From the NCBI GenBank assembly GCA_963736115.1, contig CAVTNR010000023.1, positions 1 to 15,079 of the forward strand: DNA of 15,079 bases, given 5' to 3'. Both the position numbers and the translations under genes were made by a program. Source of the DNA: an uncultured bacterium (GTDB taxonomy: Bacteria > Zhuqueibacterota > QNDG01 > DTFT01). Shown here in pieces: positions 1,519-14,220 of this stretch; positions within the stretch are counted from its first letter, which is position 1, and each line of letters opens with the position of its first letter. Below the pieces are notes generated by a model. It did not search any database. It had not been told where the DNA came from and saw only the letters and a program-made list of their open reading frames with translations.

Positions 1519-1637
1519 TTGAAGCTCCCCGCCGCAAGCGGCGGGGAATCTTCTATCTAGAGAAGAGACATCTAATATTCGCTTGCTTACCCCGCGGTTC
1601 CGCTTCGTGAGGCCGCGGGGTAAGCAAGCGGACAGAT
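1519..1637 (-). mobile_element. Non-autonomous palindromic element (IS200/IS605-derived MITE/PATE-like), copy 1
   Basis: Hairpin TCCCCGCCGC-AA-GCGGCGGGGA (1526-1547) and perfect 18-bp inverted repeat CGCTTGCTTACCCCGCGG (1580-1597)/(1613-1630). The minus strand ends hairpin-GCTTCAA like IS200/IS605 right ends. A homologous copy lies at 12544-12731. Confidence 0.65.
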
Positions 1638-1979
1638 TCAGGCTTTGAATATAAAATACACCGCGGCCAGAATGCAAAGCCCGGCGTACAGGTAGTTCGG
1701 ACGGAGCGGCTGTTTCATGTAAAACCAGGCGAAAGGCACGAAAACGGACAACGAAACAGCCTCCTGAAGAATCTTCAGCTGGGGAAGAGACATGCGAGTG
1801 TATCCGATCCGGTTGGCCGGCACCTGGATCAGGTATTCGAACAGGGCGATGCCCCAGCTCGCCAGGGCCGCGACGATCCACTTGCGGTCGCTGAGGTTCT
1901 TGAGATGCCCATACCAGGCGAATGCCATGAAACAGTTGGAGAGGACCAGGAGAACAGTGGTCTTCATCACAGGCGACAT
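1638..1979 (-). CDS. DMT-family small membrane protein (DUF486 type)
   Basis: ATG at 1979 with AAAGGA RBS; 113 aa, about four hydrophobic segments; family motifs SNCFMAFAWYGHLK, SWGIALFEYLIQVPANRIG, QLKILQE. Confidence 0.9.
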   Translation of the reverse strand: MSPVMKTTVLLVLSNCFMAFAWYGHLKNLSDRKWIVAALASWGIALFEYLIQVPANRIGYTRMSLPQLKILQEAVSLSVFVPFAWFYMKQPLRPNYLYAGLCILAAVYFIFKA

Positions 1980-5860: not shown

Positions 5861-7954
5861 TTATTCCTCCTTTTCCTTCTCCTTGTGCTTCTTGAACTCC
5901 TCGACCACCTTGGCCTCGATATCCTTCTGCATGGGCTCGTAATGAGAGAAAGCCCTCGTGAACATGCCGCGGCCCGAGGTCTTGGAGCGCAGGATGGTCG
6001 CGTACCGGTCCAGTTCGGCCAGCGGCACTTTCGCCTTGATGACCTGGAAATGGCCCTTACTGTCCATGCCCATGATCTTGCCGCGGCGGCCGGACAGGTC
6101 TCCCATGACGTCTCCCATGCAGTCCTCGGGCACCTTGATCTCGACGTTGTAGATCGGTTCGAGAAGGATGGGCTTGGCGTTCAGCATACCCTGTTTGAAC
6201 GCTTCGCGTCCGGCGATCTGGAAGGCGATGTCCTTGGAATCGACCGGATGCTCCTTGCCGTCATAAACGATCGCCTTGACATCGATGACATGGCAGCCGG
6301 AAAGCGGGCCGGTCACGAGAACCTGGCGCACGCCCTTCTCGACGGCCTGGATGAAGGGCCCCGAGATGTGACCGCCGGAGACTTCGTTCTCGAACACGAA
6401 ACCGGTTCCGCGGGGAAGGGGCTCGATGCGCATCCAGACTTCGGCGAACTGGCCGGCGCCGCCGGTCTGCTTCTTGTGCCGGTATTTCTCGTCGGCCTTG
6501 CCGGTGATCGTCTCCCGGTACGGGATGCGGGGTTTCTCCTCGAGCACTTCAACACCGAACCGCTCCTTGAGCCGCCGCATGATCACGGCCAGGTGCAGTT
6601 CGCCCTGGCCGGAGATGATGGTCTGATGGAGCTCCGGATCAACAAAAATCGTGAAACTCGGGTCTTCGAAATTGAGCATATGGAGACCCGTGGAGAGTTT
6701 GTCCTCGTCCCCGCGCGCTTTGGGTACGATGGCCACGGCGATGACAGGTTCGGGAGCCTTCACGGGCTCGATGAGGACGGGGCTCTTCTTGTCGCACAGG
6801 GTGTGTCCCGTATGCGTGTTCTTCAGCTTCACCAGGGCGCCGATGTCGCCCGTGGTGAGGGTTCCCATTTCCTTTCGGGTCTTGCCGTTCAGCGTGTAGA
6901 TCTGGCCGATTTTCTCGGCATGTTTCTGTTTCGAGTTGAAGACCTCGGCACCCATCGCCAGGGAGCCGGAGTACACGCGGATCAGCGAAAGTTCGCCGAC
7001 GTGGGCCTCGGCGACGGTCTTGAAAACGAAACCGCAGAACGGGTCGGATGCCGAAACCTTGCGGGTGACGGCCTGTCCGGCATCGGTTGCGGCCTGGAAC
7101 GTCTTGAAATCCGGCGGCGCCGGGGCGTATTCCTTCAGGAAATCCAGAAAAAGATCCGAACCGATGTTTTTATCCGCTGAGCCGCACAGGACGGGAACGA
7201 GATTGCGTTCCAGAATGCCCTTTCGGATGCCCTGGTGCAGTTCCTCGTCGGTCAGGGTGCCCTTGTCGAAGAAAACCTCGATGAGCTTGTCGTCCGATTC
7301 TGCTGCGGCCTCGACGATGCGCGTGCGCATCGCTTCCGCCCTGGCCTGCAGGTCGGCCGGCAGGTCGGACACCGTGTTCTTTCCGCTTCCGCCGGGCTCG
7401 TACGTGACGAGCTTCATCCGGAGTACGTCCACGATGCGGTTGAAGCCCTCCCCTGAATTCACCGGGAACTGAAAGGCCGTGACGCCCTTGTCGACCCGGT
7501 CCTGAACCGACTGGAACGCCTTGTCGAAATCCGCGTGTTCGTTGTCCATCCGGTTGACGAAAAAACACCACGGCCGGCGGGTTTCTTCGGCGTATTCGGA
7601 AACCAGTTCGGTACCGACCTCCATCCCGTTCACGGCGTTCAGCACCATCACGGCCAGATCCGCGAAGGCTAGAGATCCTTTCGTGTCTCCGATGAAATCG
7701 GAGAATCCCGGCATGTCGAGACAGTTGACCTTCACTTCTTTCCATTCTCCGTGAAGGAGCGTCGTGCTGATGGACGTCTTGCGCTCGATTTCGTCGAGAT
7801 GGTAATCCGATACCGTGGTCCCCTCGGCTACCTTTCCGAGGCGGTTGGTCTCTCCCAGTGTGAACAGAAGCGCCTCGGCGAAGGTTGTTTTGCCCACACC
7901 GCCGTGTCCGACCAGGCCGATATTTCGGATGTTTTCCGGGATATACTCCTTCAC
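5861..7954 (-). CDS. fusA: Elongation factor G paralog (EF-G2/EF-G II type)
   Basis: 697 aa; G1 GHGGVGKTT, DMPGF, NRMD, GQGELHL, PYRETI, KKQTGGAGQF, HPVDS, LLEPI; GTG start with AAGGAGG RBS; not flanked by rpsL/rpsG/tuf. Confidence 0.95.
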   Translation of the reverse strand: MKEYIPENIRNIGLVGHGGVGKTTFAEALLFTLGETNRLGKVAEGTTVSDYHLDEIERKTSISTTLLHGEWKEVKVNCLDMPGFSDFIGDTKGSLAFADLAVMVLNAVNGMEVGTELVSEYAEETRRPWCFFVNRMDNEHADFDKAFQSVQDRVDKGVTAFQFPVNSGEGFNRIVDVLRMKLVTYEPGGSGKNTVSDLPADLQARAEAMRTRIVEAAAESDDKLIEVFFDKGTLTDEELHQGIRKGILERNLVPVLCGSADKNIGSDLFLDFLKEYAPAPPDFKTFQAATDAGQAVTRKVSASDPFCGFVFKTVAEAHVGELSLIRVYSGSLAMGAEVFNSKQKHAEKIGQIYTLNGKTRKEMGTLTTGDIGALVKLKNTHTGHTLCDKKSPVLIEPVKAPEPVIAVAIVPKARGDEDKLSTGLHMLNFEDPSFTIFVDPELHQTIISGQGELHLAVIMRRLKERFGVEVLEEKPRIPYRETITGKADEKYRHKKQTGGAGQFAEVWMRIEPLPRGTGFVFENEVSGGHISGPFIQAVEKGVRQVLVTGPLSGCHVIDVKAIVYDGKEHPVDSKDIAFQIAGREAFKQGMLNAKPILLEPIYNVEIKVPEDCMGDVMGDLSGRRGKIMGMDSKGHFQVIKAKVPLAELDRYATILRSKTSGRGMFTRAFSHYEPMQKDIEAKVVEEFKKHKEKEKEE

Positions 7955-11570: not shown

Positions 11571-12515
11571 TCAGCGGACCGCAATGCGCGAACGGGCCAT
11601 CTGGCCCCGGCAGCGCAGGTTCCAGGCTTTACGGACGGCCGACTGCTTGTCGGTCAGTCCGGTAAGCCGGTTCAGCGACTCGACCGAACGTTCCAATTCC
11701 TCTGCGGCCCTGCGGATTTCAAGCCGTAATAGCGGTTGCCGGCCGGCGGACCGAGTGGCTTTGTTCTTCTCGAAACGCGTGAATACGGTGGCCAGACGGT
11801 TGCTCCGGGTCATGGAGTGGATCATCTCCGACTGGAATCCGCCGCGCTCCTCCTCCGGAAACGAGCTGAGAAGCGCATCCGTCTCTTTCAGTCCCTCGAG
11901 AACTTCGTCGTAACGGGCCCGCCCGAAATCCCGTTCCGCGGAAACGATGCGGTTTTCGTATCTGGACAGAAGAGCAGCGAAGCGCTGCGCCGCATCCCCG
12001 CGGGCGGAATCGGGTTCGTGCCCGGCCGGACCGGCCGAAACAGACGAGTCCGGAACGGCCCCACCGGAAACGAGGGCAGGGGCTCCGGAGGAATCGGCCG
12101 ACGCGCGTGCTGCGATGAGTCCGCTAACCTCTTCGGGGTTCACCTCCCCTTCGACGGTGCAGGTCAGTGTACGGCCCTCCTCCTTTTGATCCGTCACCCG
12201 GAGATTCCGGACGTATCCGGCCGCGACGGACCGGATGAGATCCTGCCGGAGAACGCTGTTCTCCACGGTGGATACGGATTCGAGGAAAAGATAGTAGGAT
12301 TCGACGGCGTCCCGGACGGCCAGTTCCTTGCAGGTCTGGCGCGCATCCACCAGGCTTTCACGGTCGCCGTAGGTGTAGGTATAGGTGCCGCGGATGAGTT
12401 CCGCGCCGGAGGCCGGGAAGGCCGCCGAATCGGATGCCGTTCCGGGAGCCGGGCAGGACGCGGAAGACGCGCCGAACGCCAGCGCGACGATTCCCAGGAT
12501 CAGTAACCGTTTCAT
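11571..12515 (-). CDS. Exported hypothetical protein with FlgT-N/LPP20-like N-terminal domain, low-complexity linker and helical C-terminus
   Basis: GGAGGGG RBS; signal MKRLLILGIVALAFGASSA; GTYTYTYGDRESLVDARQTCKELAVRDAVE resembles the FlgT-N/LPP20 strand-helix pattern (tentative); Ser/Ala/Pro linker. Confidence 0.6.
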   Translation of the reverse strand: MKRLLILGIVALAFGASSASCPAPGTASDSAAFPASGAELIRGTYTYTYGDRESLVDARQTCKELAVRDAVESYYLFLESVSTVENSVLRQDLIRSVAAGYVRNLRVTDQKEEGRTLTCTVEGEVNPEEVSGLIAARASADSSGAPALVSGGAVPDSSVSAGPAGHEPDSARGDAAQRFAALLSRYENRIVSAERDFGRARYDEVLEGLKETDALLSSFPEEERGGFQSEMIHSMTRSNRLATVFTRFEKNKATRSAGRQPLLRLEIRRAAEELERSVESLNRLTGLTDKQSAVRKAWNLRCRGQMARSRIAVR

Positions 12516-12543
12516 TGATGAGTCCCCTCCTTTTTCCAAAAGT

Positions 12544-12731
12544 TTGAAGCTCCCCGCGGCCCGGTACGCGGGATCAAGCTATTGTATTTTTGAATTATTG
12601 AAGACGAGCCGCGGGAATCTTCTATCTGGAGTGAAGAAAATATATTATATTCGCTCGCTTACCCCGCCGCCTGCCTTCATTACCCTGATAAACAGTAATA
12701 GCTTGGTCCAGCTTCGCTGGATGGCGGGGAG
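12544..12731 (-). mobile_element. Non-autonomous palindromic element, copy 2 (with loop insertions)
   Basis: TTGAAGCTCCCCGC (12544-12557) identical to 1519-1532; GCGGGAATCTTCTATCT (12611-12627) matches 1541-1558 with one G fewer; 12647-12667 matches 1575-1595 at 20/21. Confidence 0.65.
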
Positions 12732-12742
12732 ATCCGGAAACC

Positions 12743-13192
12743 TCAGGTGCCGCGCATCCACGCCGCCATCGACTCAGGCTCGATCCGAAAAACACTGCCC
12801 GCCCCGCCGAAAAACCCGTGCTTCCGGATCAGATGAACGGACAAACTGGAAAAAAGAATCGTCTCGCCGGACCACTTCCGAACCGCCTCGACGGTGATTT
12901 TCGGTTGAAGCTTCTTCTCACCGAACGGGCAGGGAACCAGTCCCCTCGCCCAGTCCAGCCGGACAATCCAATCCCCTGCGTCCACGGGTCCTTCCAGCCC
13001 TTTCCTGGCCGCTTCGATCAGCGACTGCAGGGTGTCCGCCACGGCCTCCGCCGTCTGTTCCAGCCGCTTCAGAGTTTCGCCGTCCTGACGGACAATCTCC
13101 GCCACGGTGCGCCGGTCCGTGCCGAGAAAACCGTCCCTGGAAATCTGGCCGGGGCGAAAAAACCGGTCGGGGTCTTCCGATTTCATATCCAT
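12743..13192 (-). CDS. Conserved hypothetical protein
   Basis: Likely start ATG 13192 or 13186 (the longer ORF overlaps the upstream gene); globular-looking sequence with PGQISRDGFLG, RGLVPCPF, HLIRKHGFFGG motifs. Confidence 0.75.
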   Translation of the reverse strand: MDMKSEDPDRFFRPGQISRDGFLGTDRRTVAEIVRQDGETLKRLEQTAEAVADTLQSLIEAARKGLEGPVDAGDWIVRLDWARGLVPCPFGEKKLQPKITVEAVRKWSGETILFSSLSVHLIRKHGFFGGAGSVFRIEPESMAAWMRGT

Positions 13193-13230
13193 CCCATGAA
13201 TGTTCCTGTTCCAGCCGGGAAACACCCGGA

Positions 13231-14220
13231 TCAGGAGAAAGGATCGAAATAAACGCTGTCTCCAGCGGCTCCGAAATCCCGAAGCACCTTCTGGCAGGCC
13301 TGAATCATTCCGGGGCTTCCGCAGAGATACGCGTCCAGGCCATCCGTTCCGCCGCGGTTTTTCAGCCATTCGGCCAGGGGAACGGTGACGAGACCGGTCT
13401 GGCCTTCCCAGTTATCGCAGGACTCAGGCTGGGAGACGACGGGAATGAAGCGGAATCCGGGAAGCTTTTCCCGGAGTGCGTCCATTTCCTCGAGATAATA
13501 AAGATCGCGCCTGCAGACCGCGCCGAAGAAATAGGTCACTTTCCGGCGGTCGCCTTCGGCGGCCATATCCCCGAGAATCGAAGCGAACGGACCCATGCCC
13601 GATCCACCGGCTACAAATACGGCCTCCGCCTCGCCTTCGCGCAGGAAAAAATCGCCCATGGGCCCGGCCAGGGTCACGCGGTCCCTGACCTGGAGATGAT
13701 CATGCACCCAGGTGGTGCAGATCCCGTTCTGCACGCGGCGGATGATCAGGTCCAGCATTCCCGGGTGGTCCGGGGTAGAGGCGATCGAATAGGACCTCCA
13801 GACGGTCCCCTCCACGCCGGGATAGGGTTTCGACTGGATCTGTATGTACTGCCCTGCCTTGAATTCCATTTCCCTCGGTTGAAGAAGCCTCAACCGGATC
13901 CGTTTAATGTCATGCGTCAGGGGCGTCATCTCCGACACTTCGGACGCAAAGGCGCGGTACGACAGGAGGGCTTCCGGAATCTCGATTTCCAGGTCCGAGA
14001 GGACCGGTATCCGGCATGCCAGCCGGATTCCCGCCGAGAGTTCCGCGGGTTTGATTCTCTGGATTTCCGCGGGCGTCGGATCGACCGGAGCTCCGGACCG
14101 AATGGTGCATCTGCAGAATCCGCAGATGCCGCGGCCGCCGCAGGCCGATGGCAGAAAAATGCCGTCCGCCCGGAGGGCTTCAAGAAGTGAAACACCGGAA
14201 ACGGACTGAATCGTCCGCAC
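13231..14220 (-). CDS. 2Fe-2S ferredoxin / FAD / NAD(P)-binding oxidoreductase (NqrF/phenol-hydroxylase-reductase-like); true start unresolved, upstream of 14220
   Basis: CGGRGICGFC...RLAC (2Fe-2S), RSYSIAS (FAD), AGGSGMGP (NAD), YLCGSPGM, terminal FDPFS. The ferredoxin first strand DVRIRVNG (from 14244) lies upstream of the called GTG. Confidence 0.9.
   Translation of the reverse strand: MRTIQSVSGVSLLEALRADGIFLPSACGGRGICGFCRCTIRSGAPVDPTPAEIQRIKPAELSAGIRLACRIPVLSDLEIEIPEALLSYRAFASEVSEMTPLTHDIKRIRLRLLQPREMEFKAGQYIQIQSKPYPGVEGTVWRSYSIASTPDHPGMLDLIIRRVQNGICTTWVHDHLQVRDRVTLAGPMGDFFLREGEAEAVFVAGGSGMGPFASILGDMAAEGDRRKVTYFFGAVCRRDLYYLEEMDALREKLPGFRFIPVVSQPESCDNWEGQTGLVTVPLAEWLKNRGGTDGLDAYLCGSPGMIQACQKVLRDFGAAGDSVYFDPFS

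Follow-up and report, generated by a model that had tools for sequence, protein, structure and literature searches.

A short hairpin module nested in the loops of a longer modular repeat in the genome of an uncultured bacterium

Contig CAVTNR010000023.1 (assembly GCA_963736115.1), a stretch of 15,079 nucleotides from an uncultured bacterium that we refer to in its entirety as the window, contains two copies of a repeat built around two hairpins, and the second copy raises the question addressed here. In copy 1 (1519–1638, plus strand) the hairpin loops are 2 nt (arms 1527–1535 and 1538–1546) and 15 nt long (arms 1580–1597 and 1613–1630). In copy 2 (12544–12742, plus strand) the arms of hairpin 1, CCCCGCGGC (12552–12560) and GCCGCGGG (12608–12615), lie 47 nt apart, and those of hairpin 3, CCCCGCC (12662–12668) and GGCGGGG (12723–12729), lie 54 nt apart; the two intervening stretches resemble each other in opposite orientation. 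The initial annotation of this DNA, whose coordinates for the arms, the inserts, a mini-hairpin in the second insert, and the copy 1 loops all agree with the sequence, had seen in this arrangement either a second tiny mobile unit at the apexes of palindromes, a 'parasite of a parasite', or a structured RNA or single-stranded DNA (ssDNA) able to switch between two local hairpins and one long fold-back. What, then, are the inserts, and how did they come to face each other within one element? We hold with moderate confidence that the locus is non-coding mobile DNA made of two nested hairpin-repeat families, a host element of ~115 nt and a separate module of ~46 nt, which we call M. The source genome, G000, is a metagenome-assembled genome (MAG) of 3.34 Mb in 31 contigs, 87% complete, and the window is one whole contig of it. 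It was compared with three congeners (G001, G002, and G003), with further genomes including G026 from another family, and with DNA contigs from environmental sequencing runs (such as X1 and X3); all genomes searched were incomplete MAGs.

The inverted resemblance is close over a short distance, with GGATCAAGCTATT (12571–12583) in the first insert and AATAGCTTGGTCC (12697–12709) in the second matching as reverse complements at 12 of 13 positions, as first reported. Local alignment of the first insert with the reverse complement of the second gave a score of 22, which was reached by one of 5000 mononucleotide shuffles, and alignment in the direct orientation gave 11, so the inverted similarity exceeds chance as judged by shuffled controls. 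Both inserts match one repeat family, M. The M profile, into which 77 copies of the insert from across the genome had gone, returned in a search of the window alone 12562–12605 on the plus strand (41.5 bits, E 1.6e-12) and 12709–12673 on the minus strand (12.2 bits, E 0.0022, profile positions 11–45). The genome-wide search with the same profile (E ≤ 0.1) recovered only the first insert of copy 2, and we therefore regard the second (12669–12722, minus strand) as a diverged member of M. The mini-hairpin TCCAGC-TTC-GCTGGA at 12707–12721 (6 bp) is present as described, but is not an additional feature of the second insert: it is M's own 5' hairpin, with CCAGC/GCTGG replacing the usual CCCGC/GCGGG. 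The low score of the reverse insert and its loss from the genome-wide search are what a chance similarity or an assembly artefact would have in its favor. That explanation, to which we assign next to no probability, is already refuted by the shuffle test, by the strict M pattern, which has 46 matches in G000 and none for its reversed control in all 31 genomes searched, and by the recurrence of the hairpin with the reverse M in both G002 and an independent environmental run.

Beyond the window, the GGAYCAAGCTATT-bearing insert proved to be a family of its own, with 184 profile matches in G000. M consists of a 5-bp hairpin (mostly CCCGC-nnn-GCGGG), the box AYCAAGCTATT (GGGAYCAAGCTATT), ~18 AT-rich bases, and TTGAAGRC, and its conservation begins at its own hairpin and ends after TTGAAGRC. 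The forward M of the window (12561–12605, plus strand) fits the strict pattern, with its own small hairpin, GGGATCAAGCTATT, an AT-rich stretch, and TTGAAGAC. In 158 of the 184 copies AYCAA is abutted by a hairpin of 4 bp or more, versus 75 of 184 after shuffling, and the arms of this hairpin covary: the matching partner was present for GCGGG in 118 of 128 copies, for GCCGG in 17 of 22, for GCGGC in 5 of 6, and for GCTGG in 2 of 3. This small covarying hairpin and the two short conserved boxes are the only signals recognisable in M. Within the order, the strict pattern was found in 6 of 31 genomes (G000, 46; G002, 23; G001, 21; G003, 10; G026, 6; G004, 1). No long element with the ends or the two halves of M was found in G000, only two truncated copies consisting of the host's L end and the 5' half of M, beside ordinary genes.

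The sequence around the inserts belongs to a second family, the host element, whose parts follow the order L end, hairpin 1, core, hairpin 3, R end, and which measures ~115 nt when both loops hold AAGC. Its tips, TTGAAGCT at the L end and ...GACAGAT followed by TCA at the R end, are not inverted repeats of each other. Both hairpins are of one type, CCCCGCSGC-loop-GSCGCGGGG, and their distances to the tips are 8 and 18 nt, both in an alignment of 37 elements from several subfamilies and in copy 1. A third hairpin candidate in the core (TCTTCT/AGAAGA) was dropped, as it is not kept in other subfamilies and at most positions only 8 to 22 of the 37 elements pair. Copy 1 is a host element without M, complete from its L end to its R end GACAGAT. 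Copy 2, recognised from sequence, core profile, and alignment of copies, is a mosaic on the plus strand with one M in each hairpin loop: the L end, TTGAAGCTCCCCGC (12544–12557), is followed by hairpin 1 (12552–12616) with the forward M filling its loop, by the core including the left arm of hairpin 3 (12608–12668), by hairpin 3 (12662–12729) with the reverse M filling its loop, and by a degenerate right end (12730–12745) that lacks the canonical R motif and runs into TCA, the stop of the minus-strand gene 12743–13369.

Counted across G000, there are 56 cores, 69 L ends (at no more than one mismatch), and 82 R ends, which with the 184 M copies fall into 163 loci of many modular architectures; at least one M is present in 52 of the 77 loci that hold an L end or a core. 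Six host cores are identical in sequence. The core of copy 2 is the highest of the 56 core matches (63.5 bits, E 3.3e-17), with a profile that was built from the two window copies. Outside G000, copy 2 as a query, M included, found matches in 15 of 41 related genomes; matches to the core without M were found in G017, G025, G014, and G028, which belong to other families and show no M pattern; and the exact pattern of L end, hairpin 1, and core occurs in 29 stretches from other Desulfobacterales or Deltaproteobacteria MAG records, the L motif being kept across their subfamilies. DNA records that carry the host element are labeled as Desulfobacteraceae, Desulfobacterales, Desulfonema, or Deltaproteobacteria MAGs. 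Carriage by phages found no support: in viral contigs the searches gave one chance match of the M pattern in a coding region and one true host element (IMG/VR contig, positions 7402–7510), with guide and tip (see below) AATG/CATT and with TTCT, not TTCA, at its end.

The host element moves. G002 and G003 lack copy 1 at the orthologous site, where the empty junction reads ...CCCGG|TTCAGG..., and in G001 this site is occupied by an L end, three M, and an R end without a core, where G000 has L, core, and R; either repeated use of the site or exchange between elements would account for the differing sets of modules. Copy 2 is absent in G001, in G003, and in a 2228-nt contig of sediment run X1, which skips 12546–12754. 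A 341-kb sample of G003 held 19 module loci, 6 of them with both flanks on one G000 contig. Two of these 6 were elements facing empty G000 sites, one was a possible footprint, one an M array of differing number, one could not be aligned, and one was a false R match; no G003 element of the sample was common to G000, and we conclude that turnover is fast. Read parallel to the genes, all four filled/empty insertions follow GAA (TGAA three times, GGAA once), and CAGA is followed by TTCA in 53 elements.

The site of copy 2 also preserves part of its history. At this site G002 has only hairpin 3 with the reverse M, ~90% identical to 12662–12740. There (contig C142) the hairpin is inserted at the native CCCCGCCG within the 3' end of the orthologue of gene 12743–13369, and is followed by a 68-nt direct duplicate of the gene end; the reading frame stays whole. 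The same form occurs in a contig of run X3. Where G002 has the 68-nt duplicate, G000 has the core, the forward M, and the L end. We conclude that copy 2 was built stepwise, the hairpin with the reverse M coming first and the L end, forward M, and core joining later. With stepwise assembly and different histories of the two inserts, their opposite orientation is a historical accident and not a designed pair.

Such a history bears directly on the proposal of a functional structured RNA or ssDNA switch, in which the inverted inserts would let two local hairpins convert into one long fold-back. The host element does have covarying helices, and the long fold-back itself holds up as the predicted minimum-energy ssDNA fold of copy 2, with the outer arms and both M paired over long range (−33.5 kcal/mol, z −2.54, none of 200 shuffles as good); as a function, the fold-back is not supported. 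It follows trivially from the presence of two inverted M copies, and copy 1 is predicted to fold into two local hairpins (z −7.8). Few cases combine a forward M in hairpin 1 with a lone reverse M in hairpin 3, and the window's lone reverse M there is a minority form, with a reverse M immediately after the core in 3 of 27 cases. By the calls of our own crude gene caller, core-bearing elements between co-directional genes run in the same direction as their neighbors in 13 cases and in the opposite direction in 23, and 12 more have divergent or convergent genes as neighbors. Close relatives in which the neighboring genes are intact lack copy 2 altogether. Rfam searches gave no match in the whole window at the gathering threshold, none in 12500–12760 at E ≤ 10, and for copy 1 only generic hairpins far below threshold. 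Together with the stepwise origin of the pair, the occurrence in both gene orientations, the presence or absence among congeners, and the lack of an Rfam family leave a switch function very improbable.

By what route might the host element move? Among 37 distinct elements from G000 and other MAGs, two stretches covary, namely the bases just after GAATCTTC, which we call the guide, and the bases just before the terminal TCA; the four covarying variants of guide and tip are ATCTGT/ACAGAT, ACCG/CGGT, ACAT(G)/(C)ATGT, and AAATGCA/TGCATTT. With only Watson-Crick pairs counted and the terminal T included, the mean uninterrupted run between a guide and its own right tip was 4.46 bp, compared with 2.29 bp across subfamilies, and the register was the same in 35 of 37. 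An earlier test that allowed G-U pairs and left out the terminal T had shown no excess (4.0 versus 3.7), and a column-wise count of the guide helix on a MAFFT alignment was spoiled by register shifts. In copy 1 the guide, ATCT within TATCT (1554–1558, plus strand), is complementary to the right tip AGAT at 1634–1637. The CTTC beside the guide pairs with GAAG of the left tip in 36–37 of the 37 sequences, an invariant pair, and from these two adjacent pairings it follows that one internal stretch pairs with both tips. Inspection by eye of the 17 flanks of subfamily 2 revealed no covariation of the guide with the target's left flank. The C-rich strand carries the L-to-R orientation at 48 loci versus 21 (sign of the local GC skew, p 0.0016); relative to the local majority gene strand, the counts are 41 versus 24. 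In the gene-parallel reading, the element starts directly after (T)GAA and ends in CTTCAA, with hairpins 18 nt (left) and 8 nt (right) from the junctions.

These features recall the IS200/IS605 insertion sequences (IS) and their palindrome-associated derivatives, as the host element has a subterminal hairpin near each end and lacks terminal inverted repeats, stands directly after GAA in the four filled/empty comparisons, where either no duplication or one of 2 bp fits the junctions, shows a replication-strand bias, and has tips that, as predicted from covariation, would be recognised by pairing with an internal guide. In the part of PMC3201880 that describes the ends of IS608, the left cleavage site is placed outside the IS, 19 nt 5' of the left hairpin, and the right one, TCAA, 10 nt 3' of the right hairpin; guides base-pair with these sites, and DNA is neither gained nor lost on insertion. 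In the host element the corresponding distances are 8 nt, from the hairpin foot to the TCAA end, and 18 nt, from the other hairpin to the left junction, against those 10 and 19 nt of IS608. The two differ in that IS608 has a 4-nt guide for each end at the foot of its own hairpin, whereas the host guide is a 4–7-bp Watson-Crick helix near one hairpin and pairs with both tips; and unlike IS200/IS605 elements, the host ends were not found to bound a transposase gene. The absence of terminal inverted repeats, the guide covariation, the fixed target, and the strand bias together suggest, from sequence features, that the host moves by single-strand, HUH-type transposition. It would be a non-autonomous Desulfobacterales element moved as ssDNA by an HUH/Y1-type enzyme, in the manner of IS200/IS605 or of repetitive extragenic palindromic (REP) sequences. 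Classical features of a MITE (miniature inverted-repeat transposable element) were not seen, neither terminal inverted repeats in the host nor a related long element in G000.

G000 also has REP systems of its own. Three genes for REP-associated tyrosine transposases (RAYTs), at C17:75006-75746, C2:71370-71915, and C19:57393-57902, score above the NCBIfam NF047646 cut-off, and each is flanked by its own REP family, neither the host element nor M being found in that position; the REPs beside the second and third have a GTAG tag. Where PMC3733652 sets out what defines a REP, a GTAG or CGTC tag at the palindrome foot is the criterion. By that standard neither of our two families qualifies: neither GTAG nor CGTC stands at the foot of the host hairpins, before which GAAGCT or TTA is found, or of the M hairpin, after which comes AYCAAG. 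The likeness to REPs, bacterial interspersed mosaic elements (BIMEs), and REP doublets forming hairpins (REPINs) with their RAYTs is otherwise considerable, as all are short GC-rich extragenic hairpins of high copy number that form mosaic clusters in both orientations with conserved linkers and persist across related lineages, and G000 itself has RAYT genes with REP families. The host differs in being longer (~115 nt, two hairpins and a core), in lacking the tag, and in not having been found flanking any RAYT; and M differs in lying inside REP hairpins, not between them.

The placement of M in unrelated hairpins argues for a separate module. An insert restricted to the host's hairpin loops with fixed junctions had been envisaged, and the fixed junction is borne out: an unoccupied host loop reads AAGC, and in an occupied one M precedes AAGC, the same junction being seen at hairpin 1 of M-less copies, and M occurs in both loops and in both orientations. 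The restriction is not, as 53 of the 163 module loci are lone M copies away from the host, and these copies lie within other hairpin repeats. Among those repeats are the hairpins of three REP families, unrelated and each flanking one of the RAYT genes, and in G026 M lies inside a different repeat. Complementary flanks of at least 6 bp surround 61 of the 184 M copies, compared with 1.7% of 5000 random genomic places. Next to an L end or a core, M is forward in 58 of 63 cases, and of the 30 reverse copies 21 lie directly behind a forward M. We propose that M colonised the loops of the host's two hairpins within the genus, mostly in one orientation, as well as the hairpins of other REP families, that composite host-plus-M units would then have been amplified whole, and that the inverted M pairs may be secondary. 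The second tiny unit imagined earlier is thus real as a separate family with defined ends placed in hairpin loops; that M moves independently we infer. In a separate observation, a ~190-nt insertion in G000 relative to G003 (C28, ~53875–54037) belongs to another repeat family (motif CGGGCTTCTGGCCGCTCCGAC) that hosts M-like modules elsewhere in the genome.

The same arrangement might have arisen if M were a linker motif between small GC-rich hairpins in a BIME-like mosaic, not separately mobile and spread by recombination, gene conversion, and fold-back copying within larger composites. M is indeed bounded on both sides by hairpins, the TTGAAG at its 3' end is similar to the host's L end, after which a hairpin likewise follows, tandem and inverted M arrays exist and vary in number among congeners, and the reverse copies directly behind forward ones are what fold-back copying would produce. 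Mosaic REP clusters, REPs linked to RAYTs, and REPs within other palindromes are already on record (in the relevant parts of PMC3733652 and PMC3333891). By the BIME criterion of palindromes alternating with conserved linkers, the modular architectures fit; M, however, lies inside unrelated hairpins and has a hairpin of its own. Against the mosaic stand the ends of M, which are sharp and constant in unrelated contexts, its presence inside hairpins of at least four sequence-unrelated G000 families plus the one more repeat in G026, and the far wider spread of the host than of the strict M pattern, from which we conclude that M is a later addition to the host and not part of its design. On balance we judge the mosaic explanation rather unlikely. 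The nesting is real, but the system is of a known kind, that of REP/BIME-like mosaic repeats.

A number of results nevertheless weigh against two nested mobile families, and we set them out together. The subtypes of M correlate with host and position, as the mosaic explanation would have it, which means that many copies spread as passengers; the separate M insertions may number below ten, and because the copies are not independent both the 58:5 orientation count and the strand-bias test are weakened. No orthologous host hairpin was found with M in one genome and without it in another. Some M sites depart from what the simple model predicts, several through direct repeats of 8–12 nt and one through the 68-nt target duplication. 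The differing module sets of G000 and G001 at the site of copy 1 could result from recombination as readily as from insertion. The TT of the junction (AA on the other strand) can be assigned to either end, so that a 2-bp target duplication fits as well as none. As to the enzyme, hairpins of the host element do not flank any of the three G000 RAYT genes; no core match was found at any of 18 Y1-transposase loci in G001, G002, G003, G017, and G025, one of which has an M ~1.4 kb from a weak match; tblastn detected no Y1 homologue in 221 kb around 38 elements of other genomes; and G000, at its 87% completeness, has no L...R pair 400–6000 nt apart.

Among the transposase matches, three L-like sequences (2 mismatches) near strong TnpA matches were rejected as chance, since they lie within a conserved open reading frame (ORF) of 389 amino acids. 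The strong-match TnpA in question is flanked by yet another REP family, and in G001 there are nine matches to Y1 transposases along with one or more further REP families, one being of the CCCACGGCTGAAGCCGTGGG type.

A more specific reading, which we advance only tentatively, is that M is a ~46-nt hyperparasitic mobile module that inserts strand-specifically into the apex or stem of ssDNA hairpin repeats (the three RAYT-associated REP families and the 115-nt element) and borrows the machinery of its hosts, and that the 115-nt host would set both cleavage points by its one two-tip guide, unlike IS608 and possibly in a reprogrammable way. BOX elements of Streptococcus pneumoniae are composed of end modules with an internal module that is present in varying number. 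They share the modular build with the present elements, but their internal modules stand in tandem between the ends, whereas M occupies the apexes of hairpins, in either orientation, and is found in unrelated repeats too, and there is no sequence relation. REPs nested in palindromes (Anabaena GTAG-15, Thermomicrobium GTAG-23, and Halothiobacillus CGTC-1) are the reverse case, as there the REP is the guest, whereas here REPs and the 115-nt element are the hosts and the non-REP 46-nt M is the guest in several families. Insertion sequences that target REPs are known, for example ISPpu9 of the IS110 family (in the portions of PMC12288879 and PMC3733652 that treat them). Like M, such elements use hairpin repeats as insertion sites, as those portions describe; unlike M, with its 46 nt and no long element carrying its ends in G000, they are full insertion sequences with a transposase gene. 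In the main texts, supplements aside, of the literature on REPs, RAYTs, or MITEs with Desulfobacter and on nested or loop insertion, we found no account of a 46-nt guest in several hairpin families, of a 115-nt element with a two-tip guide, or of such repeats in Desulfobacterales.

As to the surroundings of the two window copies, both adjoin the TGA stop of an upstream minus-strand gene (1638–1640 and 12743–12745). The gene next to copy 1 (1638–2039) encodes a DMT_6 (DUF486) membrane protein; no Pfam match was found for the other flanking minus-strand genes, 897–1505, 11571–12515, and 12743–13369. For gene 11571–12515 the start is the ATG at 12515 rather than the upstream TTG of the mechanical ORF list. 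Of the 36 elements that the same gene calls place between co-directional genes in G000, 9 overlap a stop codon, and the (T)GAA target often coincides with a TGA stop. For 16 of 96 composite loci scored inside a gene, either the elements are in coding regions or the crude caller runs through. A weak third copy in the window at 7437–7466 (repeat family D5, 70% identity) was dismissed as chance, as it lies within a long ORF and has no core profile match.

What the locus means depends on which account holds. If the BIME-like mosaic is true, it belongs to an ordinary repeat landscape. Such repeats fragment MAG assemblies and can alter the 3' ends of genes, as the M-bearing hairpin and 68-nt duplication at the congener's gene end illustrate. 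The host family offers signals of ssDNA transposition that can be read from sequence and put to the test, namely a fixed target, a TCAA right end, and a guide that covaries with the tip, and it extends REP/RAYT-type repeat biology to uncultured Desulfobacterales. If two nested mobile families are indeed present, they would be a clear example from nature of genomic parasites stacked in layers among the smallest mobile DNAs of bacteria, with a 46-nt module living in the loops of REPs and of a 115-nt hairpin element.

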